From a virus (Duplodnaviria > Heunggongvirae > Uroviricota > Caudoviricetes), in the IMG/VR virus record IMGVR_UViG_2526164667_000011, positions 1 through 9,331 of that record: DNA of 9,331 nt; one strand, given 5' to 3'. The notes below the pieces were generated by a model. It saw only the letters and a list, made by a program, of their open reading frames with translations, was not told the origin of the DNA and searched no databases. How positions within the stretch are numbered: the stretch's first letter is position 1; the number at the start of each line of letters is the position of its first letter. Below, piece after piece: positions 1 to 9,331 of this stretch. A program made the position numbers and the translations under genes.

Positions 1-677
1 GTCAGCGACCAGAATTTTTTGATGTTGTTAATCGCGGTACGGCTGTATCGTTCGCGTTGTTCAACGATCCCCAGCTTCACCATCTGGTGATATGCCTGAT
101 TAGCCGTCAGGCGGATACCATACTGTTTCAGCAGTGCACTCAGCGACAGCGTGGGGCGGCTTGAGCCATCAGGCGCATCAGCAGGAGCATCAATGGCATA
201 GCGCGGTGCCAGATTCGGTAAGCCAACAGCCTCCTGAAGTTTCTGACAGGCTCCAAGCACTGAAGAGTTAGACAGATTTAACTCCCGGCGCATAAAGTCC
301 AGCAGAATCACACCAGCCTGCATCTTGTCAGCAGCCTGTTCGGATAATTTTTCCGGTGCGCTGGTTACCATGTCGAAAGTACGGATCACCTTCAGATGGA
401 ATGACGGGCTGATCCACATTGCATAGGCATACACCAGTTCTTTGCAGACATACGTCCCCTGGTTATTTCCGCCACGAATAACGTTAACTGGCTCTATATT
501 GACCGAGTTGCAAATCTGCAACTCGCTTATTAAACGCTCAGTTTGCTCATTGCGGAGCCAGAATGCAGGCTTATGCTTATCCAGAGAACCGGCAGCCCTG
601 TGCAGATCGTTCAGGCTGTAACGACCATAAGCATCACGACGAACTTCAATACCATCAATGACCATCAGATTATTCAT
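1..677 (-). CDS. KilA-N domain-containing protein (phage antirepressor-like DNA-binding protein); 3'-partial, C-terminus lies beyond the window start
   Basis: Not in the ORF track because it runs off the window. I translated the minus-strand frame by hand: ATG at 677..675 with an AGGAGA Shine-Dalgarno 6-7 nt upstream, then open to position 3 with no stop (more than 225 codons). The N-terminus MNNLMVIDGIEVRRDAYGRYSLNDLHRAAG...KPAFWLRNEQTERLISEL...GTYVCKELVYAYAMWISPSFHLKVI matches the KilA-N/APSES fold pattern from memory. It starts 19 nt downstream of the rusA stop. Confidence 0.6.
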   Translation of the reverse strand, partial: MNNLMVIDGIEVRRDAYGRYSLNDLHRAAGSLDKHKPAFWLRNEQTERLISELQICNSVNIEPVNVIRGGNNQGTYVCKELVYAYAMWISPSFHLKVIRTFDMVTSAPEKLSEQAADKMQAGVILLDFMRRELNLSNSSVLGACQKLQEAVGLPNLAPRYAIDAPADAPDGSSRPTLSLSALLKQYGIRLTANQAYHQMVKLGIVEQRERYSRTAINNIKKFWSL

Positions 678-696
678 ACTTCGTTTCTCCTCTTAA

Positions 697-1086
697 TCAG
701 GCGGCTGCACCCGCCGTTTTCTCGTACTTACTGATAGTGATCTCGACCTTCCCTTCCGGGATAACCGGTCCCCACTCCACCAGCATTCTTTTCACCTGAC
801 TGTCGTCTTCCCACACACCCGCGTGGGTCAGGGCGTCAAACAGCGCCTTGTTATAGTTGTCCAGATCGCGGATCCGGTTATCCGGAGGAAACAACACGAT
901 CTCCACTGAAGCAGGTGCCGACGTTGGTTTTGGCAGACGACGTAACTGCTCAACTATTGCTGCACACGCCGCGCTCTGGAATTTGCGCCCCGCCGCGCTT
1001 ATCAGGCTCTTACCTGCAAACGCCCCTTTGTTGGGGTGTCGCCAGTACGTGTTCACGCTGGGCGGGAAAGGCAGAATCAGCTTCAT
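697..1086 (-). CDS. rusA: RusA-family Holliday junction resolvase (crossover junction endodeoxyribonuclease)
   Basis: 129-aa ORF. LPFPPSVNTYWRH...DNRIRDLDNYNKALFDALTHAGVWEDDSQV resembles E. coli/phage RusA (PWPPSxNxYYRH...DLDN...KAxxDALTxAGxWxDDxQV), including the acidic catalytic cluster. Its start overlaps the upstream gene's stop by 4 nt (ATGA). Confidence 0.85.
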   Translation of the reverse strand: MKLILPFPPSVNTYWRHPNKGAFAGKSLISAAGRKFQSAACAAIVEQLRRLPKPTSAPASVEIVLFPPDNRIRDLDNYNKALFDALTHAGVWEDDSQVKRMLVEWGPVIPEGKVEITISKYEKTAGAAA

Positions 1087-1409
1087 ACTTTCAGACCCCT
1101 CTCATGTAACCAGTGGGCTGCACGCAGCCTGGCGTTTTCCTCACCGGCAAGCAGTGAGCGGATAATCCCGACCGCCTCGCTGTCGTCGTCCTTCACCGCG
1201 GTATGAAGCGTTATCCCCCGGGCCACACCACGCTTTATCGTGATGACGCCTTTTTTCTCCAGTGCGCGAAGATGCTCCACCGCTGCATTCACTGAACGAT
1301 ATCCCAGCATGGTTGCCACCTCCTGATTGGTTGGCGGAAAGCCACGCTCTTTCTGGTAAGAAATCAGCATATCCAGCACCTGCTGCTGGCATTGAGTTAA
1401 CGTCGTCAT
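1083..1409 (-). CDS. LexA N-terminal DNA-binding-domain-like protein (winged helix), lacking the S24 peptidase domain
   Basis: 108-aa ORF. LTQCQQQVLDMLISYQKERGFPPTNQEVATMLGYRSVNAAVEHLRALEKKGVITIKRGVARGITL parallels the LexA N-terminus ([65 protein letters not shown]). There is no GDSM/K peptidase region. 4-nt overlaps with both neighbouring genes. Confidence 0.7.
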   Translation of the reverse strand: MTTLTQCQQQVLDMLISYQKERGFPPTNQEVATMLGYRSVNAAVEHLRALEKKGVITIKRGVARGITLHTAVKDDDSEAVGIIRSLLAGEENARLRAAHWLHERGLKV

Positions 1410-2059
1410 GCCGCCATCTCCCTGACCAGTTTTTCCGCCTGCTGGCGAACCTGCGCCAGAAAGGCCTCACCACATGCCTCAAGTTCATCGCGCCCGATGT
1501 AGCTGATTGCCGGTCCCTTCCAGGTCTTGTCGAAAACAGCAATAGCACCAGCGAAGAAAGCGCCTGTCGGTACCTGCTTCTCGTCTTTCGGGATAAACCA
1601 GACAGGCAGTTCAAAACCAATACGCCCGCGAATAAAAGCAATATGATCTGCATCTTCCGGCCACCACACTTCGCTGGTGGCAGCTTTAATCAGGAAAACA
1701 TAGCGCCCGCCTTTATCACGCATGGCACTGGCATGCTTCATGATGTAACGCATGCCGGTGATGTATTGCCCCTCATGCTGACTGGCGCGGCTGTATGGGG
1801 GATTACCAAAGGCAGCACCTTTAAGCTCCGCAAGACGTTCTGACCAGTCATGCGCCAGCGCGTTGTCTTCCGCCGTGTAATACGCGGCACATTTGGCATT
1901 ATCACCGTCAGTGAACAGATCCAGAACAAACGGGCCAAACAGGGTGTTAATTCCCCAGAAAATGTTGTCCGGCGTGCGCCACTGATCGCCCACTTCCTTC
2001 AGTTCATGGGCTGGTTTGTTCCGCAGTTCCACCAGCGCCTGGCAATATTTATTACTCAT
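1406..2059 (-). CDS. Phage orphan N6-adenine DNA methyltransferase (Dam-like, NPPY motif)
   Basis: The protein contains GAAFGNPPYS, the catalytic (D/N)PPY motif IV of N6-adenine methyltransferases, and has typical phage Dam size. No restriction endonuclease partner is adjacent. The ORF track starts it at GTG 2092 (228 aa); I prefer ATG 2059 (217 aa, MSNKYCQ...), which forms a TAATG stop/start junction with the upstream gene and follows a GGGGG purine run. Confidence 0.75.
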   Translation of the reverse strand: MSNKYCQALVELRNKPAHELKEVGDQWRTPDNIFWGINTLFGPFVLDLFTDGDNAKCAAYYTAEDNALAHDWSERLAELKGAAFGNPPYSRASQHEGQYITGMRYIMKHASAMRDKGGRYVFLIKAATSEVWWPEDADHIAFIRGRIGFELPVWFIPKDEKQVPTGAFFAGAIAVFDKTWKGPAISYIGRDELEACGEAFLAQVRQQAEKLVREMAA

Positions 2060-2553
2060 TAAGCCCCCACGTAATTCCCTGACAGATACCACTCTTCACC
2101 CGATGCAGCGCGCTTGCTGCTTTTCCGTAAGCACCGCTCACGACGCGCCAGAAAATTGTTTCGCTCTTGCTGGGAGTGGCTTTCACGGAATGCCGCCATC
2201 CACACCGTTGCAGCACGACGGTATAAGCCCCTGGACTCCAGTTCTTCCGCCTGGCGGGTCAGGCACAAAATCACCCGTGGATCGTTAGTGCCGACATAGA
2301 AATTGCGCACAGGTCTGGTTTCTCGAACTGGTTGTGGTTCCGGTTCCTGCGCTCTCTCAGTCAGGCGCGGGAAATGTCTGCGTGTATCTCCTTCACAACG
2401 GTGAGCCACACGCCCGCTCTGACGTAACTTGCTTGCTGACCGCAGAACGCGCTGCCGTGAGTAACCTGCAAAAGCATCCGCAATGTCTCCGGAAGTACAC
2501 CCCGGATGGGCTTCAATGAATTTCTGAACGTCATTCAAAAGACTCATGATCAC
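2059..2553 (-). CDS. Putative transcriptional regulator with PerC-like C-terminal motif and a winged-helix-like N-terminus
   Basis: 164-aa ORF. The C-terminal segment LESRGLYRRAATVWMAAFRESHSQQERNNFLARRERCL resembles the PerC-family signature (GLWRRAAxRW) from memory. Start is GTG 2553 (4-nt overlap with the O-like stop) or ATG 2547. Same size and position as YfdN of CPS-53, from memory. Confidence 0.55.
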   Translation of the reverse strand: MIMSLLNDVQKFIEAHPGCTSGDIADAFAGYSRQRVLRSASKLRQSGRVAHRCEGDTRRHFPRLTERAQEPEPQPVRETRPVRNFYVGTNDPRVILCLTRQAEELESRGLYRRAATVWMAAFRESHSQQERNNFLARRERCLRKSSKRAASGEEWYLSGNYVGA

Positions 2554-3389
2554 CCCCTGAATCCTGCCGGGATCTGGCTGTAGTCCACGTTGTCGTAACT
2601 GGCTTTGAAGTACGGGTCCTCACGTCCGGCTACAGATACCGCAGGAACTTCCCAGGATTCTTCGAAATGACGATCCGGACCAAAGAACGTGACAGCCTGT
2701 TTCACAAATTGTGTGCCGCTGTTACCCATCGCAGATACCCAGCCCGCGTAGCGTTTCACACCTTCCAGCATGGTTTCGGGGTTTACCCCCTCATTCAAAC
2801 GGGCTTTCCAGGCTTTGAAGGCTGCAGATTTTGAATTGCCACCAGCACGTTTGGGATATGCCAGCCATGCCTGCTCAAACTCTGGAGAGTATTCCGGTCG
2901 GTTTGAACGAACTCGCACAGACTCATCAGCAGATGCACCAACAGCTATTGGTTCATTGACTGGTTCTTTGACTGGTTCAAAAGAGTGACTGGTTCTGGGT
3001 GAATCTCCTGCACTACCCCCTGGTGCAACTCCTGCACTACCTAGTGCAACTCCTGCACTACCTGGTGAATTTGCTGCACCAGATAGTGAATTATTTGCAC
3101 TACTCCCTAGTGAATCTCCTGCACCATCAAGATGAAGGAGATAGATATTACTTGAGTTACCTTTTTCACCTTTCCGGGTGACTTTTTTTACCAGCCCGGA
3201 CTCACAAAGGGCCGCAATATGATTCATCACAGAACGTTTGCTAATCTCGCACTGGTCAGCAATATGCTGGTAGCTGGGCCAGCACTCACCCTGATCGCTG
3301 GCATTATCAGCCAGCTTGATCAGAACCAGTTTTCGCAATGGATTACCCACTCGAATTTTCATCGCTTTAACCATCAGCTCCATACTCAT
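2550..3389 (-). CDS. Replication initiation protein, lambda O-like: N-terminal HTH DNA-binding domain, Gly/Ser/Ala-rich repeat linker encoded by the iterons, C-terminal replisome-organiser-like domain
   Basis: 279-aa ORF with a GGAGG Shine-Dalgarno 6 nt before ATG 3389. The N-terminus (KLVLIKLADNASDQGECWPSYQHIADQCEISKRSVMNHIAALCESGLVKK) is HTH-like. The linker GSAG-rich repeats coincide with the DNA repeats at 2999..3130. The C-terminal FEQAWLAYPKRAGGNSKSAAFKAWKAR motif resembles phage replication initiators. Architecture mirrors lambda O, whose gene also contains the origin. Confidence 0.75.
   Translation of the reverse strand: MSMELMVKAMKIRVGNPLRKLVLIKLADNASDQGECWPSYQHIADQCEISKRSVMNHIAALCESGLVKKVTRKGEKGNSSNIYLLHLDGAGDSLGSSANNSLSGAANSPGSAGVALGSAGVAPGGSAGDSPRTSHSFEPVKEPVNEPIAVGASADESVRVRSNRPEYSPEFEQAWLAYPKRAGGNSKSAAFKAWKARLNEGVNPETMLEGVKRYAGWVSAMGNSGTQFVKQAVTFFGPDRHFEESWEVPAVSVAGREDPYFKASYDNVDYSQIPAGFRG
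2999..3130. repeat. Iteron array (candidate phage origin of replication) inside the O-like gene: six tandem 21/24-bp units
   Basis: Units begin at 2999, 3023, 3044, 3065, 3086 and 3110. Examples are GTGCAACTCCTGCACTACCTA and GTGAATCTCCTGCACTACCCCCTG. Each unit holds an internal dyad (GTGCA...TGCAC). Periods are multiples of 3, so the reading frame is kept. An A+T-rich stretch follows at 3131..3193 (ATAGATATTA, CTTTTTCAC, ACTTTTTTTACC). Confidence 0.6.
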
Positions 3390-3610
3390 GCTGCACCTCC
3401 GAGATGCTTCATGTTTTTTCCGGAGCGAAAGGCTATAAGCGGCATACTGACGCGGTAATTACGGCCCAGCGGTTCACAAATCACCTTCTGACATTCACGG
3501 TCAACCAGGCTAACACGTAGAACATGCCCTGCAGGTGTGGTGTACCACTGACCCGGACGAGGACAACGGAAAGTCTGATTGGTAAACCGTTTGAAAATAT
3601 TCCGGATCAT
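3386..3610 (-). CDS. Small hypothetical protein (74 aa) between the Rha-domain gene and the O-like gene
   Basis: The ORF is bounded by 4-nt ATGA overlaps on both sides (start overlaps the Rha stop at 3607..3610; stop overlaps the O-like start at 3386..3389), the same coupling pattern as the rest of the operon. No recognisable motif. Its 3' end contains the O-like gene's Shine-Dalgarno. Confidence 0.45.
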   Translation of the reverse strand: MIRNIFKRFTNQTFRCPRPGQWYTTPAGHVLRVSLVDRECQKVICEPLGRNYRVSMPLIAFRSGKNMKHLGGAA

Positions 3611-4752
3611 TTGCGCCCCCTTACCTCTGAAGGGTTCAGCGACAAATTTATGAGGCAGGCCAGTGCCGAAGCATCATTAATATAGTCATACAAGCTAACA
3701 GCCAGCGGAGATTCGGCTTTTGCCAACATAGGATAAAGCTGCTGCAGCCAGACCTGATGAATTGATGAAATGTAGGAATAGAGAACGCTGGCGTTATGTG
3801 CAACGTCGCTCAGTACAGAGGGATTTGAAAGCTGTTTCTCCATCTGGTTAAAGGCATTGATGTATGCCTCTTTGAACTGGGCAGCACGTTTACCCGTGAA
3901 GCCCATGGCAAGAAACGCAAAACCGTCGCGGGTGATTTGGTAACAAGGGAGTTTGCGGCCTGTGCAATCGGTGTAATCACTGGGCTGAAAATTCAGCTCA
4001 GTGAATTCAACAGAGCACTCAAGCGTCTGGATTTTTTGAATAACGTTTTTGTGCTGCTTGCAGAAATATTCGGCAACGGCCAAAGAAGAGGTAACAGCCT
4101 TCCCATGGATAACATCAATTTTAGGGTGAGTTTGGGTAGGGGTGGTTGCCATAGTGACATCCTCATGTGCGAATTTTGAAAACTCACCACATGGGACGCC
4201 AATCACAGAGGTGGTGAGACGTACAGGGTTGGCGTAACCGGTCGCACATGACCCCGGCGCATCTTTCGATGCCCCTGCACGCCCCACCATAATTTGGATG
4301 TGAGGAAACGTGCGCAAAAAAACCGCTGAAGCGCGGTTATGCGCATGTGCGAATTTCAGGACGCCAATCCCGGCACCCGCTTTATAAGGTGCCTGAGCAG
4401 TGTAACGTCCCGGAATTGCAGAATCAATATGCTGGTGGTCCTTCACACTCAACAAAATCACGCCTGAATTTCCACAAAGGACTAAAGCACTCATGCGGGT
4501 AGTCTTTGCGAAGATAGATAACGCGCTGTGTTTCTGGCTCCCAACGAATAACATGGACATAAAGCCCTCTTCCGTCACGAAACCAGCGGTTAAGTTCCTG
4601 CACAACTCGCCCCCCACAGTCAGGTAAAGTTCTCTGTGGTTACTTACAGCCAGGTGATTTGGTAATCTGCATTCATGCCGTAACAACAGGTGTTCAGCGA
4701 CGCTGACCACCAGCTGTTGCGACAAACGGTTATTTGCCGTTAAACTGTTCAT
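3607..4752 (-). CDS. Rha-family phage regulatory protein; the track ORF is 381 aa with the Rha domain at about residues 205-300, and an internal ATG at 4152 would give a canonical 181-aa Rha protein
   Basis: VTSSLAVAEYFCKQHKNVIQKIQ...YQITRDGFAFLAMGFTGKRAAQFKEAYINAFNQMEKQL matches the Phage_pRha signature (ITRDGFxFLxMGFTGKxA...FxxAFNxME). The frame is open for 1146 nt, with an ATGA overlap with the upstream gene at 4749..4752. The internal ATG at 4152..4150 (Met201) has a GAGGA Shine-Dalgarno 7 nt upstream and sits where Rha proteins normally begin. Confidence 0.6.
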   Translation of the reverse strand: MNSLTANNRLSQQLVVSVAEHLLLRHECRLPNHLAVSNHRELYLTVGGELCRNLTAGFVTEEGFMSMLFVGSQKHSALSIFAKTTRMSALVLCGNSGVILLSVKDHQHIDSAIPGRYTAQAPYKAGAGIGVLKFAHAHNRASAVFLRTFPHIQIMVGRAGASKDAPGSCATGYANPVRLTTSVIGVPCGEFSKFAHEDVTMATTPTQTHPKIDVIHGKAVTSSLAVAEYFCKQHKNVIQKIQTLECSVEFTELNFQPSDYTDCTGRKLPCYQITRDGFAFLAMGFTGKRAAQFKEAYINAFNQMEKQLSNPSVLSDVAHNASVLYSYISSIHQVWLQQLYPMLAKAESPLAVSLYDYINDASALACLINLSLNPSEVRGRK

Positions 4753-5300
4753 GCGTTAGTTTCTCCACAGACACAAAACGCCACGACGCCCGGAGCTGCA
4801 CACTCGCGGGCGTCACTCTTTTCTGGAGCGCAAAAGATTTTGTAGACCAGTGCTGCATGCTCCTGGAGCTTCGAAATTGACAGATACAACTCATCATTAA
4901 TTGCTGTCTGCTCGTGTGGCTCCACTACCCCATCTTCGATTGCCGAACGAATCTGCTTTGAGTAACTCCCGATCTGTTCGATGGCTTCCAGCAGGCGCTG
5001 GTTTATATCGGCGTTCTCTACTTCCTCAATTTCAGGAAGCGATACAAACACCCCACCAGCAGACTGTGCGACAGCATCCGCAATGTAGTGAGTGCCAGCC
5101 GCGCGCTGTAAAATCATTGCCCATCCCAGCGGGAAAATCTGATCGCCATCTGCACGAAGGCGGTTGAATAAAGCGTTCTCTGTTACATCCAGCCACTCAG
5201 CAGCTTCAGCGTAACCTCCCGGCAACGCCGCGATAGTTTTTCTGACAGCTTTCACGTACCACTCAGGTTGTTTTTCCACTTTCCAGTGATGCTTACCCAC
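4749..5300 (-). CDS. Putative CII-like phage regulatory protein (in the cII position immediately after cro; possibly the CP76/YdaT-like family)
   Basis: 183-aa ORF with a GTG start at 5300 and a strong GGAGGT Shine-Dalgarno 5 nt upstream, which lies inside the 3' end of cro (8-nt overlap). Assignment is mainly by position/synteny; family membership is from weak memory only. Confidence 0.5.
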   Translation of the reverse strand: MGKHHWKVEKQPEWYVKAVRKTIAALPGGYAEAAEWLDVTENALFNRLRADGDQIFPLGWAMILQRAAGTHYIADAVAQSAGGVFVSLPEIEEVENADINQRLLEAIEQIGSYSKQIRSAIEDGVVEPHEQTAINDELYLSISKLQEHAALVYKIFCAPEKSDARECAAPGVVAFCVCGETNA

Positions 5301-5553
5301 GGCTTACCTCCTGTTCCTGTGGTTTAAACCCATTCTGGTTTTGGCTAGATTGAAAACGTGCCGGATAAAGAATCTGCATTTCGCTGATTTCACCCTTAAA
5401 AAAATTGGCCAGACGTTCTGCAAGATCGATAAATGGAATTTGTTCCTGTCTTTCAATACGACTCAGCGTCGCTGGATTGACCTGAACGCCCGCAGCAACA
5501 TGCTGCAAAGTAAATCCGTGCGCCTTACGCACATTCCGTAATGGTGATTGCAT
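5293..5553 (-). CDS. Cro-like HTH transcriptional regulator (XRE/Cro-C1 family)
   Basis: 86-aa ORF divergent from the cI-like gene. The HTH segment is GFTLQHVAAGVQVNPATLSRIERQEQIP. GGAGG Shine-Dalgarno 5-6 nt upstream of ATG 5553. First gene of the minus-strand early operon. Confidence 0.8.
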   Translation of the reverse strand: MQSPLRNVRKAHGFTLQHVAAGVQVNPATLSRIERQEQIPFIDLAERLANFFKGEISEMQILYPARFQSSQNQNGFKPQEQEVSRG

Positions 5554-5650
5554 ATAACCTCCACATATTGCGTGATGAGCATATTATTTCACGCAAATAT
5601 TTTGCGCAAGTTGATTTGCTTAACGCGCAATAAAGAAATGTAATAAACGC
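5554..5650. promoter_or_regulatory. Divergent cI/cro operator-promoter region (PR/PRM-like) with clustered TTGCG/CGCAA half-site palindromes
   Basis: Inverted repeats: TTGCGTGA-N13-TCACGCAA (about 5568..5596), CGCAAA-TAT-TTTGCG (5592..5606), palindromic TTGCGCAA (5602..5609) and TTGCttaacgcGCAA (5617..5630). Candidate minus-strand promoter for cro: -35 TTGCGC, 17-bp spacer, -10 TAATAT. Candidate plus-strand promoter for cI: -35 TTGCTT (5617..5622), 16-bp spacer, -10 TGTAAT (5639..5644), placing the transcript start at or next to the cI ATG. Confidence 0.55.
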
Positions 5651-6343
5651 ATGAACATAGGAAATCGAGTCAGACAACTTCGCCAGGCGAAGAACATGAA
5701 AATCGCCGATCTCGCTGAAGCAATAGGAGTGGATGCGGCGAATATCTCGCGCCTCGAAACAGGTAAGCAGAAACAATTCACTGAACAAGCCCTGAGTAAT
5801 ATTGCCAGGAGCTTAGGTGTTGATATTGCTGATCTCTTTACCTCAGACCTCAAAAGTAATACTGTATGTAAAAACAGTATTAGTGAGGATGTTGCGCAGG
5901 TGAAGGATGTATTCCGTATTGAAATGCTGGATGTCAGTGCCAGTGCGGGAAATGGCCTTATCCAGGGCGGTGATGTCATTGATGTGATTCATGCCATTGA
6001 ATACAGAACTGATAATGCTGTATCGATGTTTGGTGGACGACCAGCAAATCACATTAAAGTTATCAACGTTCGTGGGGACAGTATGTGTCCAACCATTGAG
6101 CCAGGAGATCTCATCTTCGTTGATATCAGTATCAATCAGTTTGATGGGGATGGTATATATGTATTTGGTTTTGATGATAAAATTTACGTCAAACGACTGC
6201 AAATGATACCTGATAAACTGCTGGTAATTTCTGATAATCAGATTTACCGCGAATGGGGAATTACCAGCGAAAACGAACATCGGTTTATGGTCTTTGGAAA
6301 GGTCTTAATCAGTCAGTCACAAACCCTTAAGCGACACAATTAA
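5651..6343 (+). CDS. cI: cI-like phage repressor: N-terminal HTH_XRE domain plus C-terminal S24 (LexA-like) autopeptidase domain
   Basis: 230-aa ORF. HTH: MKIADLAEAIGVDAANISRLETGKQ. Peptidase: Ser nucleophile in VRGDSMCPTIEPGDLIFVD (Ser144) and Lys in IYVKRL (Lys181), 37 residues apart as in LexA. Candidate Ala-Gly autocleavage site at Ala99-Gly100 (SASAGNG). No Shine-Dalgarno precedes the ATG. Confidence 0.9.
   Translation: MNIGNRVRQLRQAKNMKIADLAEAIGVDAANISRLETGKQKQFTEQALSNIARSLGVDIADLFTSDLKSNTVCKNSISEDVAQVKDVFRIEMLDVSASAGNGLIQGGDVIDVIHAIEYRTDNAVSMFGGRPANHIKVINVRGDSMCPTIEPGDLIFVDISINQFDGDGIYVFGFDDKIYVKRLQMIPDKLLVISDNQIYREWGITSENEHRFMVFGKVLISQSQTLKRHN
5860..5879. promoter_or_regulatory. SOS-box (LexA-box)-like palindrome TACTGTATGTAAAAACAGTA inside the cI coding sequence (interdomain linker)
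   Basis: Matches the E. coli LexA box consensus TACTGTATATATATACAGTA at 16 of 20 positions, with a perfect CTGT-N8-ACAG core and AT-rich centre. It is the only CTGT-N8-ACAG site I found in the window. Function is untested. Confidence 0.4.
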
Positions 6344-6364
6344 CCCCTACCTCAACATCAATTA

Positions 6365-6384
6365 GCCACCAGAAGGTGGCTTTT
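6365..6384 (+). terminator. Rho-independent terminator downstream of the cI-like gene
   Basis: GCCACC-agaa-GGTGGC hairpin (6-bp GC-rich stem, 4-nt loop) followed directly by TTTT, 22 nt after the cI stop. Confidence 0.6.
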
Positions 6385-6397
6385 CATCACCCACCAA

Positions 6398-6452
6398 ATT
6401 GCATATCTCGCAATAAAAACACTTGCATAATGCGCAACTTCATTTTATCTTT
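6398..6452 (+). promoter_or_regulatory. Candidate OL/PL-like operator-promoter for the rightward yfdP-yfdQ-yfdR operon
   Basis: ATTGC-atatctc-GCAAT (6398..6415) and TTGC-ataatgc-GCAA (6423..6437) repeat the TTGC/GCAA half-sites seen in the cI-cro region. Possible promoter: -35 TTGCAT (6423..6428), 17-bp spacer, -10 TATCTT (6446..6451). Hexamer assignment is tentative. Confidence 0.3.
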
Positions 6453-6883
6453 CTTTCCAGACATACAAACAAGGTACTAACAAAATTTGGTTGTAACACG
6501 GCGTATGGCACATGCGTCGTTAGCGGTCTGGTGACGTTAAAGGGGACAATCCACTCCTTGCTCGAGCAAACAAACCAGGTAGCCGGAATGTGCAAGTCAA
6601 TGATGACGCTGATAAGACGCCTAACCAGCGTGGCGATTCGGTTTGACGCCTGGGAAGAGACCAGGGTGCAACGATGAGGGCATTTATGGAACCGCGACAA
6701 AGTGTGGTGCCGTAACTGGCTAAGTGCTCTCAGCGTTGTGGTGAATGCGCAGGCTGATGCGCGAAAGACATTGCAGCTATTGCGGAAAAGAGCTGTTCGG
6801 CGGGGCAATTAAACGCCCGTGAGAGTCTGAAATAACCGCAAGCCGGAGATCAGCACCGGTCACCACAGCAGCCACTGCTTTGG

Positions 6884-6929
6884 CGGTACCAGTTTGTACA
6901 CTTGCTTACGGCTGGTACCGCTCTTTTTA
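6884..6929 (+). terminator. Hairpin followed by a T-run in the long leader before yfdP (terminator-like, or an RNA element with a boxA-like CGCTCTTTTTA)
   Basis: Perfect 9-bp stem CGGTACCAG/CTGGTACCG (6884..6892 and 6912..6920) with a 19-nt loop, followed by CTCTTTTTA. The sequence CGCTCTTTTTA (6919..6929) resembles a lambdoid/rrn boxA (CGCTCTTA / TGCTCTTTAACAA). The large loop makes a classic terminator uncertain. Confidence 0.35.
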
Positions 6930-7065
6930 CAAAACAGAGAAGAGCATCACCGGACGACGGGCTCATAACCCAATCCATCCGGGCGGCTGCCACCGCAGGT
7001 GTTCTTCTCTGTTTTGTGGAGAAACCAACCGACCTTGCAGGGTCGATATGATGAGGAGTAGCAAA

Positions 7066-7428
7066 ATGGCTAGCGAACGCAGTACTGATGTGCAGGCATT
7101 TATCGGGGAGCTGGACGGCGGCGTATTTGAAACCAAAATCGGCGCAGTTCTCAGTGAAGTCGCTTCCGGTGTGATGAACACGAAAACCAAAGGTAAGGTC
7201 TCGCTCAACCTGGAAATCGAACCGTTTGATGAGAACCGTGTGAAAATCAAACACAAACTCTCATATGTTCGCCCGACTAACCGCGGGAAAATTTCTGAAG
7301 AAGACACCACCGAAACGCCGATGTATGTCAATCGCGGTGGTCGCCTGACTATTCTGCAGGAAGACCAGGGACAATTACTGACTCTTGCCGGTGAACCTGA
7401 CGGAAAACTCCGCGCAGAAGGTCATTAA
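7066..7428 (+). CDS. Hypothetical protein, YfdP-like (CPS-53/KpLE1 prophage family), 120 aa
   Basis: The track ORF starts at 6880, but the plausible start is ATG 7066 (MASERSTDVQAFIGELDGG...), preceded by GAGGAG about 8 nt upstream; two ATGs at 7047/7050 lack a Shine-Dalgarno. The size and the position immediately upstream of yfdQ fit YfdP from memory. Confidence 0.65.
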   Translation: MASERSTDVQAFIGELDGGVFETKIGAVLSEVASGVMNTKTKGKVSLNLEIEPFDENRVKIKHKLSYVRPTNRGKISEEDTTETPMYVNRGGRLTILQEDQGQLLTLAGEPDGKLRAEGH

Positions 7429-7493
7429 TATCGTTCTTAATTAACTGATTATTTATCTCATCACTGAATATCTTAATATAGTGAGGACTTATT

Positions 7494-8318
7494 ATGTCTC
7501 AGAACTTAGACGCAACCGCAATTAATCAAATCCATGCCCTTATTTCTGCTCAGGGTGTTAATGAAATTATCAGTAAGATTGGTGCCGATGCTGTGGCATT
7601 GCCTGAGAATTTCCGCATTCATGATCTGGAAAAATTTAATTTAAATCGCTTCCGTTTCCGTGGTGCGCTTTCCACTGCCAGCATCGATGACTTTACCCGT
7701 TATTCTAAAGATCTTGCAGATGAAGGCACCCGCTGCTTTATCGATGCCGATAATATGCGAGCAGTCAGTGTGCTTAACCTGGGTACTATTGATGAACCAG
7801 GTCACGCAGATAACACCGCCACTCTCAAACTGAAAAAGACAGCACCGTTCTCTGCCCTGTTGTCTGTTAACGGCGAGCGTAACTCCCAGAAGTCACTGGC
7901 AGAATGGATTGAAGACTGGGCCGACTACCTTGTGGGCTTTGATGCTAATGGTGACGCTATTCAGGCAACAAAAGCGGCTGCGGCGGTCCGTAAAATCACG
8001 ATTGAAGCAAACCAGACCGCTGATTTTGAAGATAATGACTTCAGCGGCAAACGCTCCCTGATGGAGTCTGTCGAAGCGAAGACCAAAGATATTATGCCAG
8101 TGGCATTTGAATTTAAATGCGTTCCGTTTGAAGGTCTGAAAGAACGTCCGTTTAAATTACGCCTCAGCATTATCACTGGCGATCGTCCTGTACTGGTTCT
8201 GCGCATTATTCAGCTGGAGGCGGTGCAGGAAGAAATGGCTAACGAATTTCGTGATCTGCTTGTTGAGAAATTCAAGGACAGCAAAGTAGAAACCTTTATT
8301 GGTACTTTCACCGCCTGA
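7494..8318 (+). CDS. yfdQ: YfdQ-family protein (DUF2303), 274 aa
   Basis: GAGGA Shine-Dalgarno about 8 nt upstream of the ATG. Length and sequence ([21 protein letters not shown]...) match my recollection of E. coli K-12 CPS-53 YfdQ. It lies directly upstream of the HD-domain yfdR-like gene, as in K-12. Confidence 0.8.
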
Positions 8319-8330
8319 TTTCATTACTGC

Positions 8331-8355
8331 AAATGCCCCTGCGGGGGCATTTATG
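8331..8355 (+). terminator. Stem-loop downstream of yfdQ (possible weak intrinsic terminator or attenuator)
   Basis: AAATGCCCC-tgcg-GGGGCATTT hairpin (9-bp stem with a GC-rich core) starting 13 nt after the yfdQ stop. The trailing U-tract is short (AUUUAUGG), so termination is probably partial. Confidence 0.4.
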
Positions 8356-8445
8356 GAAACGTAATTTACTCAATAATCGCCGGATGGTGAGGGATTCTTT
8401 TTACCAGAATTCAGCGCGGTGCAGCGCATATACGTGGAGAACAAA

Positions 8446-9331
<886 letters not shown>

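Follow-up and report, generated by a model that had tools for sequence, protein, structure and literature searches.

A probable lambdoid-prophage version of the nested P4 eta/kil genes, with an IsrK-C4 RNA cassette in frame with Rha

Related systems and the Ash-Rha locus

In the satellite phage P4, the immunity region of the left operon consists of the nested genes eta and kil, with seqA, seqC and the cI RNA embedded in them (Forti et al. 1999, as reported in PMC10111431). According to the summary of Forti et al. 1999 given in PMC10111431, eta contains a constitutive promoter, termination involves CI and seqA, Kil is a shortened form of Eta, and the translation of Eta prevents termination. The Rfam models for C4 and isrK were reported to detect relatives of CI and seqA inside genes of the "Bro network" (PMC10111431). 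A locus of comparable plan is described here from a 9,331-nucleotide stretch of viral DNA (IMG/VR record IMGVR_UViG_2526164667_000011, positions 1 to 9,331; Caudoviricetes), the whole of which is called the window below. The window is the early region of an Escherichia coli lambdoid prophage and is 100% identical over 2.2 kb with several complete E. coli chromosomes. At 3607..4752 it carries an ATG-started open reading frame (ORF) of 381 codons, 'Ash-Rha', in which a Rha domain is preceded by a 200-codon extension; this ORF and all features below are on the minus strand unless the plus strand is named. With a probability of about 0.7, this locus corresponds to the nested eta/kil genes of P4 in a lambdoid-prophage version with an embedded RNA immunity cassette, in which the long ORF is the equivalent of eta and Rha is the cargo. 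The act of translating the extension, and not its amino acid sequence, would be what matters in this explanation. The eta/kil-type plan and the C4 and IsrK RNAs are known already; what is added here, on the evidence of the sequence, is Rha as the putative cargo and an upstream stretch of the frame which overlaps a DUF4222 gene.

The open frame of the P4 sequence extends from 8821 to 8168. Within it, 197-199 codons (eta) follow from the ATGs which lie across the stop of vis (ORF88) at 8767-8761, the AUG of C4/CI at 8581 gives the historic 137-amino-acid (aa) "cI" ORF, which is the source of the Pfam Ash match, and AGGAGG-N8-ATG at 8365 gives the 65-codon kil. As checked on this sequence, both long ORFs start at the stop of the upstream gene and 5' of the internal promoter, hold the isrK/seqA and C4/CI RNAs, are in frame with a short ORF which has its own Shine-Dalgarno (SD) sequence, and match Pfam Ash. 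The SD-to-ATG string of kil, AGGAGGCTGCCATCATG, recurs in several lambdoid loci (GGAGGCTGCCATCATG). The two systems differ in the host element, which here is the early-right operon of a lambdoid prophage, between a CII-like gene and the replication genes, and in the cargo, a 181-aa Rha as compared with the 65-aa Kil. The present long ORF is also about 100 codons longer upstream, where it overlaps the out-of-frame DUF4222, and its read-through function is proposed by analogy with P4.

In phage P1, the a' and b' loops of the C4 RNA pair with the sites a1/b1 upstream and with a2/b2 at the ribosome-binding site of the next gene, and the protein controlled is of the antirepressor class, with the two in-frame isoforms Ant1 and Ant2. 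As far as this general account of P1 goes, the scheme of a'/b' against a1/b1 and a2/b2, a target of the antirepressor class, and two in-frame isoforms are features which the present locus would share. However, P1 is described to have a separate small icd between c4 and ant, whereas here the target directly overlaps the SD of Rha. The c4 antisense RNA, icd and ant1/ant2 of the immI region of P1 and P7 go back to Citron and Schuster 1990 (as cited in 10.1101/2020.03.17.996009).

The isrK-orf45-anrP locus of Gifsy-1 (Salmonella) is similar in having IsrK and a C4-like RNA (STnc1160) in tandem upstream of an antirepressor-like gene, and in having a leader ORF which likewise begins with the conserved AUG that C4 carries at its 5' end. 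orf45 was reported to be translated, and its translation to be needed for the expression of anrP; its nucleotide sequence is conserved, but not its amino acid sequence (PMC4825925). The Gifsy-1 leader differs from the present one in being 45 codons long, out of frame with anrP and ending at the anrP AUG (AUGA). Its frame is closed upstream, and the locus lies in the late region next to antQ. The Rfam C4 match of Gifsy-1 (1594..1677 of locus L013) falls inside orf45 and presumably is STnc1160, which was compared with P4 CI in the 2016 paper without use of the name C4 (PMC4825925). The AUG of orf45 is that of the conserved AUUAUGG at the C4 5' end.

Some Rha proteins of Shiga toxin (Stx) phages of the Eru type were reported to carry an Ash domain with no assigned function (PMC8951638). 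These proteins, and those named 'ash family protein' in RefSeq, represent the same type of ORF as Ash-Rha. However, these annotations treat Ash as a protein domain, whereas the evidence given below points to the conceptual translation of an IsrK/C4 cassette.

Composition of the extension

A first-pass annotation, made from the letters of the window alone, described the ORF at 3607..4752 with an ATGA-coupled start and with Rha following an internal Met201 that has its own SD, and this description stands. The ATG of the long ORF (4752..4750) overlaps the TGA of ymfL (4751..4749). The ATG of Met201 is at 4152..4150, with the SD GAGG upstream at 4164..4161, and both SD and ATG are kept across homologous loci (alignment of 13 loci). 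The short Rha ORF from Met201, equivalent to P4 kil, covers 3607..4152 (181 codons). The Rha domain (PF09669) was found at aa 221-306 of the long ORF (~3835..4092, Pfam E=7e-33), corresponding to aa 21-106 of the Met201 product, and is N-terminal only if Met201 is the start; a match to TIGR02681 scored 114 bits.

The extension is a composite of other elements and not a protein domain. Within the long ORF, the DUF4222 gene lies out of frame over codons 51-110, and a putative promoter falls at codons 109-119. The IsrK small RNA (sRNA) with its terminator corresponds to codons 121-146 and the C4 antisense RNA to codons 153-182, and the sites targeted by C4, at codons 184-198, overlap the SD of Rha. 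With residues 121-198 and 51-110 so occupied, the earlier proposal of a novel fused Rha protein or an unrecognised domain is not supported. It had also been noted that no plus-strand ORF explains the open stretch. Only the plus strand had been considered, and the strand of the long ORF itself holds the DUF4222 ORF and two Rfam RNA genes inside the extension.

The DUF4222 gene (PF13973) at 4424..4603 has 59 codons and a GTG start, which alternates with ATG at one position among loci. It is matched by Pfam (E=9.4e-14, 51.1 bits against a threshold of 27) and by PHROG 1343 (E=2e-36), and its wobble position is codon position 2 of the long frame. The spacer between ymfL and DUF4222 (4604..4748) contains an imperfect inverted repeat, CAACAGCTGGTG ... 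CACCTGTTG, which is near-perfect over 11 bp in the relative L006 via changes on both arms. Folding of 4600..4760 revealed no significant structure (z = -1.48).

The putative promoter PisrK (4399..4427) is composed of a -35 TTGATT at 4427..4422, a 17-nt spacer and a -10 TACACT at 4404..4399, with the IsrK +1 located 7 nt downstream. It aligns with the isrK promoter region of Gifsy-1 and is among the most conserved segments in 74 cassettes (collected as described below); similarity to the phiP27 locus starts a few bases upstream of its -35. IsrK, the homologue of P4 seqA, occupies 4316..4392 (Rfam RF01394, 62.3 bits against a gathering score of 50) and contains the decoy sites b1 (4368..4359, AUUGGCGUCC) and a1 (4353..4344, UUCGCACAUG). 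A weak Rfam match to the a1/b1 target family overlaps it. Its intrinsic terminator, detected in a terminator scan, is a stem-loop at 4338..4321 followed by a U-run, and lies inside the long ORF. The C4 antisense RNA (4207..4294), homologous to P1 c4, P4 CI and Salmonella STnc1160, matches Rfam RF01695 over its full length with 75.1 bits against a gathering score of 45. Its loops are a' at 4253..4242 and b' at 4237..4229. The conserved AUG at its 5' end (4290..4288) is Met155 of the long ORF, equals the start of Gifsy-1 orf45 and is in frame with Rha. The target sites of C4 on the Rha leader (4161..4203) are b2 at 4203..4194 and a2 at 4173..4161. Two further Rfam candidates, mir-875 (E = 0.07) and STnc100 (E = 0.62), were far under their gathering scores and were rejected as noise.

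The loops of C4 are complementary to both sets of sites. The a' loop (GGUCAUGUGCGA) can form 10 contiguous pairs with the a2 core UCGCACAUGA (4172..4163), a2 overlapping the SD GAGG, and 9 contiguous pairs with UCGCACAUG in IsrK (a1), while b' (UUACGCCAA) pairs with UUGGCGU of b1 and of b2 (7 pairs each). The C4 fold contains 27 pairs, 9 of them with compensatory double changes, and 1 of 1080 cells was unpaired in 40 unique sequences. Over 73 cassettes with 22 distinct a' loops, the cognate combinations a'-a1 and a'-a2 gave 9.5 and 11.1 consecutive pairs, as compared with 6.6 for non-cognate ones. The hypervariable segments also change together in the 13-locus alignment, namely a', a1 and a2 (the last 5' of and overlapping the SD), and likewise b', b1 and b2. 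The IsrK-C4 tandem was present in 16/16 homologous loci examined, in addition to P4; these 16 include the lambdoid phages cdtI, mEp460, SfV and phiP27, Stx phages, Gifsy-1, VT2-Sakai and a Yersinia phage. Because the C4 fold covaries and the a' loops match a2 at the SD, Met201 is probably an RNA-controlled start, as in P1 c4/icd-ant and P4 cI/kil. The energies of the whole-molecule duplexes, -47.6 for C4 with the Rha leader (shuffles -39.0 ± 5.4) and -53.8 for C4 with IsrK (shuffles -43.8 ± 5.6), were both within ~2 standard deviations of the shuffles and inside their range. Reliance is therefore placed on the direct complementarity of loops and targets and on the covariation. Two isoforms from tandem in-frame starts, as suggested in the first-pass annotation, are plausible by analogy with the experimentally studied eta/kil pair of P4.

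Thousands of E. coli genomes show 90-93% similarity to the window up to query position 591, which is the C4 3' end (~4207..4210), and differ beyond it in the target sites and the cargo gene. The boundary at which cassette and cargo recombine therefore seems to be the C4 3' end. Other cargos of the same cassette are a 77-aa protein without Pfam match and a 120-aa Rha-like protein. Some viral contigs contain two or three IsrK-C4 cassettes in tandem (L055 has three at ~656-bp spacing; also L038, L100 and L122), each followed by a Rha-like cargo of 120 to 187 codons with its own open frame and upstream ATG; such arrays could be stacked RNA immunity specificities.

The match of the extension to Pfam Phage_ASH (PF10554; aa 117-211, E=5e-15, 56.2 bits against a threshold of 26) coincides with IsrK, C4 and the C4 targets, and the same coincidence with RNA genes is found in P4. 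The extension had been described as being without a recognisable motif, with the peptides HECRLPNH (aa 26) and FAHAHNRASAVF (aa 134) singled out. Phage_ASH, IsrK and C4 all match the extension, and FAHAHNRASAVF results from translating site a1 and the hairpin of the terminator. Two peptides occur twice, KFAH (aa 133 and 193) and IGV (aa 129 and 184), and these correspond to the RNA repeats a1/a2 and b1/b2.

Openness of the frame and its translation

The stop-free frame runs from the ymfL stop across the out-of-frame DUF4222 and the whole cassette into Rha. An open stretch of 200 codons has a chance probability of ~7e-5 from base composition, and 1 of 20,000 shuffles was open; the remaining two frames contain 13 and 9 stops in the same 600 nt. 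The stretch is therefore open beyond chance. Assembly error or frameshift was rejected as a cause, the identical sequence being present in several complete E. coli genomes. Among 65 unique close relatives, 62 keep the full ORF with its ATGA start; the DUF4222-based search that yielded relatives returned only loci of 95-98% identity and serves as a check of close relatives, not as a divergent control. Divergent lambdoid loci with the cassette behind a CII-like gene or another early gene were open in the cargo frame as far as the upstream stop in 13/13 cases, and their other frames have many stops. A frame-independent pattern scan of viral contigs gave 112 unique cassettes, of which 74 are of the 83-nt C4 type (pairwise identity median 64%, minimum 48%). 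From about -160 to +138 relative to the C4 AUG, the long frame had 2 stop occurrences in these 74 (72/74 open), with 8 more at the 5' boundary, at -171 and -165. Each other frame had 34 polymorphic stop positions, with 3.7 and 4.7 stops per sequence. A stop in homologues which would separate an upstream gene from Rha, and so make the ORF a strain artefact, is not what the relatives, lambdoid loci and viral cassettes exhibit.

Wherever the distance between the -35 and the C4 AUG was measured, the length differences were multiples of 3. In minimal cassettes an ATG of the long frame lies immediately before the -35, at 52-57 codons from the C4 AUG, and in several of them this ATG has an SD-like motif and/or overlaps the upstream stop. 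In DUF4222 there are 4 codon positions at which the G- or A-ending synonym is a stop in the long frame, and these are T- or C-ending in nearly all of 37 unique sequences; 55/59 third positions of the gene vary, and with the codon usage of E. coli the probability of no stop is ~0.04. Among the homologous loci, jackhmmer detected only 5 DUF4222 genes not adjoining a cassette, too few for a strong control. On these patterns, the long frame is held open by selection and not by chance.

The same patterns bear on two other explanations. In one, only a short leader ORF from the C4 AUG (Met155, 4290) is translated, similar to Gifsy-1 orf45 but in frame with Rha, and the openness further upstream is functionless and inherited. 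This is unlikely. Between the 5' boundary and the C4 AUG, a segment of ~160 nt, the 74 cassettes have 1 stop occurrence in the long frame as compared with 20-plus polymorphic stop positions in each of the other two, and indels in this segment come in multiples of 3. The minimal cassettes place their in-frame ATG immediately upstream of the -35, in several cases with an SD-like motif or ATGA overlap, and P4 eta starts upstream of its internal promoter. On its side are the start of orf45, which maps exactly to the C4 AUG and whose translation was shown experimentally in Gifsy-1, a far N-terminal stop in 2 of the 65 relatives, and the position of PisrK, whose transcripts cannot contain any upstream start. 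In the other, the extension is a leader that is not translated, the 381-codon ORF was annotated in error, and the openness is a by-product of the strong nucleotide constraint imposed by the RNAs and DUF4222. The RNA genes, promoter and terminator within the extension would fit such a leader, as would the lack of codon periodicity, the frame being closed in four cassettes of other contexts, and the annotation of identical DNA in three ways (see below). It is nevertheless improbable: a1, a', a2, the b sites and the terminator stem vary freely and almost never produce a stop in this frame, but often do so in the other two, and the chance probability in the window, the stop-avoiding synonymous codons of DUF4222 and the functional translation of P4 eta, as reported in the P4 account of PMC10111431, all speak for a translated frame.

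The peptide encoded by the frame shows no corresponding constraint. Read in the long frame, the cassette has entropies of 0.735/0.763/0.739 at codon positions 1/2/3, and there is no excess of third-position variability for Phage_ASH in the IsrK-C4 part (p=0.96), as against 0.63/0.55/1.06 for the Rha ORF at similar divergence (p=2e-18). DUF4222 in its own frame gave 0.28/0.25/0.58 (p=4e-9). Coding-type conservation, which the first-pass annotation had proposed to look for, is hence absent from the IsrK-C4 part and present in Rha. Because the frame is almost stop-free and yet without codon periodicity, it seems that translation is selected and the peptide is not, and the 'Ash' of Pfam is apparently the translation of an RNA cassette. 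The absence of peptide constraint in the cassette matches the report on Gifsy-1 orf45.

A true folded or functional module, consisting of the 'Ash domain' and a novel N-terminal part, which modifies Rha and is merely overlapped by the RNA genes, is thus very improbable. The amino acids change wholesale wherever the RNA specificity changes, the repeated peptides KFAH and IGV are simply RNA repeats, residues 51-110 come from reading DUF4222 in its wobble-shifted frame, third positions show no excess, and conservation of nucleotides but not of amino acids was found by the Gifsy-1 authors (PMC4825925). The Phage_ASH match, matches to several PHROGs, the conserved frame and the ~1,300 database proteins which share the extension are what would be expected of such a module. 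An AlphaFold2 model of the 381-aa ORF, from a 22-sequence alignment, was poor as a whole, with a mean predicted local distance difference test (pLDDT) score of 33; the extension scored 23-35, which is not in favour of a fold, and the Rha domain 41-51. Since the Rha domain itself reached only these values, the structure prediction, which had been proposed earlier and was carried out in this form, cannot decide whether the extension folds.

The eta/kil-type explanation leads to the following course of events. In the lysogen, the internal promoter PisrK would give IsrK, and read-through of the terminator followed by processing would give C4, by homology to P1, P4 and Gifsy-1. The a'/b' loops of C4 would pair with a2/b2 and block the ribosome-binding site of Rha, so that no short Rha is made, and the untranslated RNA would then be prone to termination. 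The decoys a1 and b1 of IsrK could titrate C4 or remodel the leader. Upon induction, transcripts from the repressor-controlled early promoter would include the upstream ATG at 4752. Ribosomes leaving ymfL may re-initiate there and translate through the cassette, and this read-through translation would prevent formation of the terminator hairpin, pairing of C4 and loading of Rho. Early transcription would thereby become insensitive to the RNA immunity, and the long Ash-Rha isoform would be made. The fuller form of this idea is tentative, and somewhat less probable than an even chance: the frame would be preserved purely as a ribosome track from the CII-like gene across promoter, sRNA, terminator, antisense RNA and target (and across DUF4222 with its stop-avoiding codons), early lytic transcription would override the RNA immunity of the prophage itself, and the 'Ash' family would be a translated RNA cassette.

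Several observations weigh against the eta/kil-type explanation. PisrK matches the consensus only in 4/6 and 4/6 positions and was missed in a simple consensus scan of the window, and no downstream Rho-dependent terminator, the analogue of P4 timm, was identified. The frame is closed or the leader short in 4 loci of other context (Gifsy-1, VT2-Sakai, Yersinia and TL-2011b); these cassettes work with a short or no in-frame leader ORF, and read-through translation is therefore not obligatory for C4/IsrK systems. In 2/65 close relatives a stop lies in the first ~40 codons and 1 is without ATGA, so that the extreme N-terminus is dispensable at least sometimes. The stop avoidance in DUF4222 rests on only ~3-4 lineages, and the cassettes compared are not phylogenetically independent, which inflates the p-values.

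Gene context, annotation and meaning

The long ORF is part of a chain of minus-strand genes joined by 4-nt (ATGA-type) or slightly longer overlaps, which is the early-right operon. The chain is listed from the cro-like helix-turn-helix (HTH) gene at 5293..5553, followed by ymfL at 4749..5300, which is CII-like (Pfam Phage_CP76; NCBIfam YmfL, 169 bits). Downstream of Ash-Rha are a gene for a 74-aa protein at 3386..3610, whose ATG is overlapped by the TGA of Rha, and an O-like HTH/DnaD gene (HTH_36/DnaD_N) at 2550..3389. Further members of the chain are PerC, a Dam methylase, a protein with a LexA DNA-binding domain and RusA. Within the O-like gene, a 21-bp tandem repeat of ~5.7 copies is present at 2999..3124 (also at 2949..2979); it encodes a repetitive GSAGVA and looks like origin iterons inside an initiator gene, as in lambda O. 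A CI-like repressor (HTH and Peptidase_S24) is transcribed divergently at 5651..6343 (plus strand), and its cleavage should depend on LexA/RecA. Other genes on the repressor side (6880..9042, plus strand) are an ORF without Pfam match at 6880..7428, a DUF2303 gene at 7494..8318 and a weak YfbR-like HD protein at 8419..9042. The last ORF, 9056..9277 (plus strand), runs off the end of the window and has HTH matches of the resolvase/transposase type. Its beginning is presumably similar to that of an IS21-family IstA transposase, which would suggest the insertion of an insertion sequence (IS) at the edge of the window.

Regions matching the locus are found in 2,983 of 5,426 complete E. coli genomes. 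The Prokaryotic Genome Annotation Pipeline (PGAP) presents the same or near-identical DNA in three ways, as a 381-aa Rha, as a 295-aa Rha from the SD-less Met87 together with DUF4222, or as an 'ash family protein' together with DUF4222. DUF4222 is thus annotated in some genomes only, and the C4 and IsrK RNAs are never annotated by PGAP at these loci. One RefSeq relative sharing the extension (P0068) is named Icd-like.

The main value of the finding lies in annotation, namely in Ash as a translated cassette, in RNAs left unannotated and in the inconsistency of PGAP, and in the out-of-frame overlap with DUF4222. A concrete mechanism is proposed for a type of ORF which is present in more than half of the complete E. 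coli genomes and is now inconsistently annotated. The locus also offers a testable case of a frame whose translation, and not whose product, would be under selection, and which overlaps RNA genes as well as a protein gene read out of frame. In the regulatory regions of Stx phages, the "Ash domain, function unknown" would be linked to IsrK/C4 RNA immunity, which controls proteins of the antirepressor type and hence prophage induction. If the frame is indeed a ribosome track, the more than a thousand proteins of the 'Ash' family of Pfam and RefSeq would represent the translation of an RNA cassette and no protein domain.

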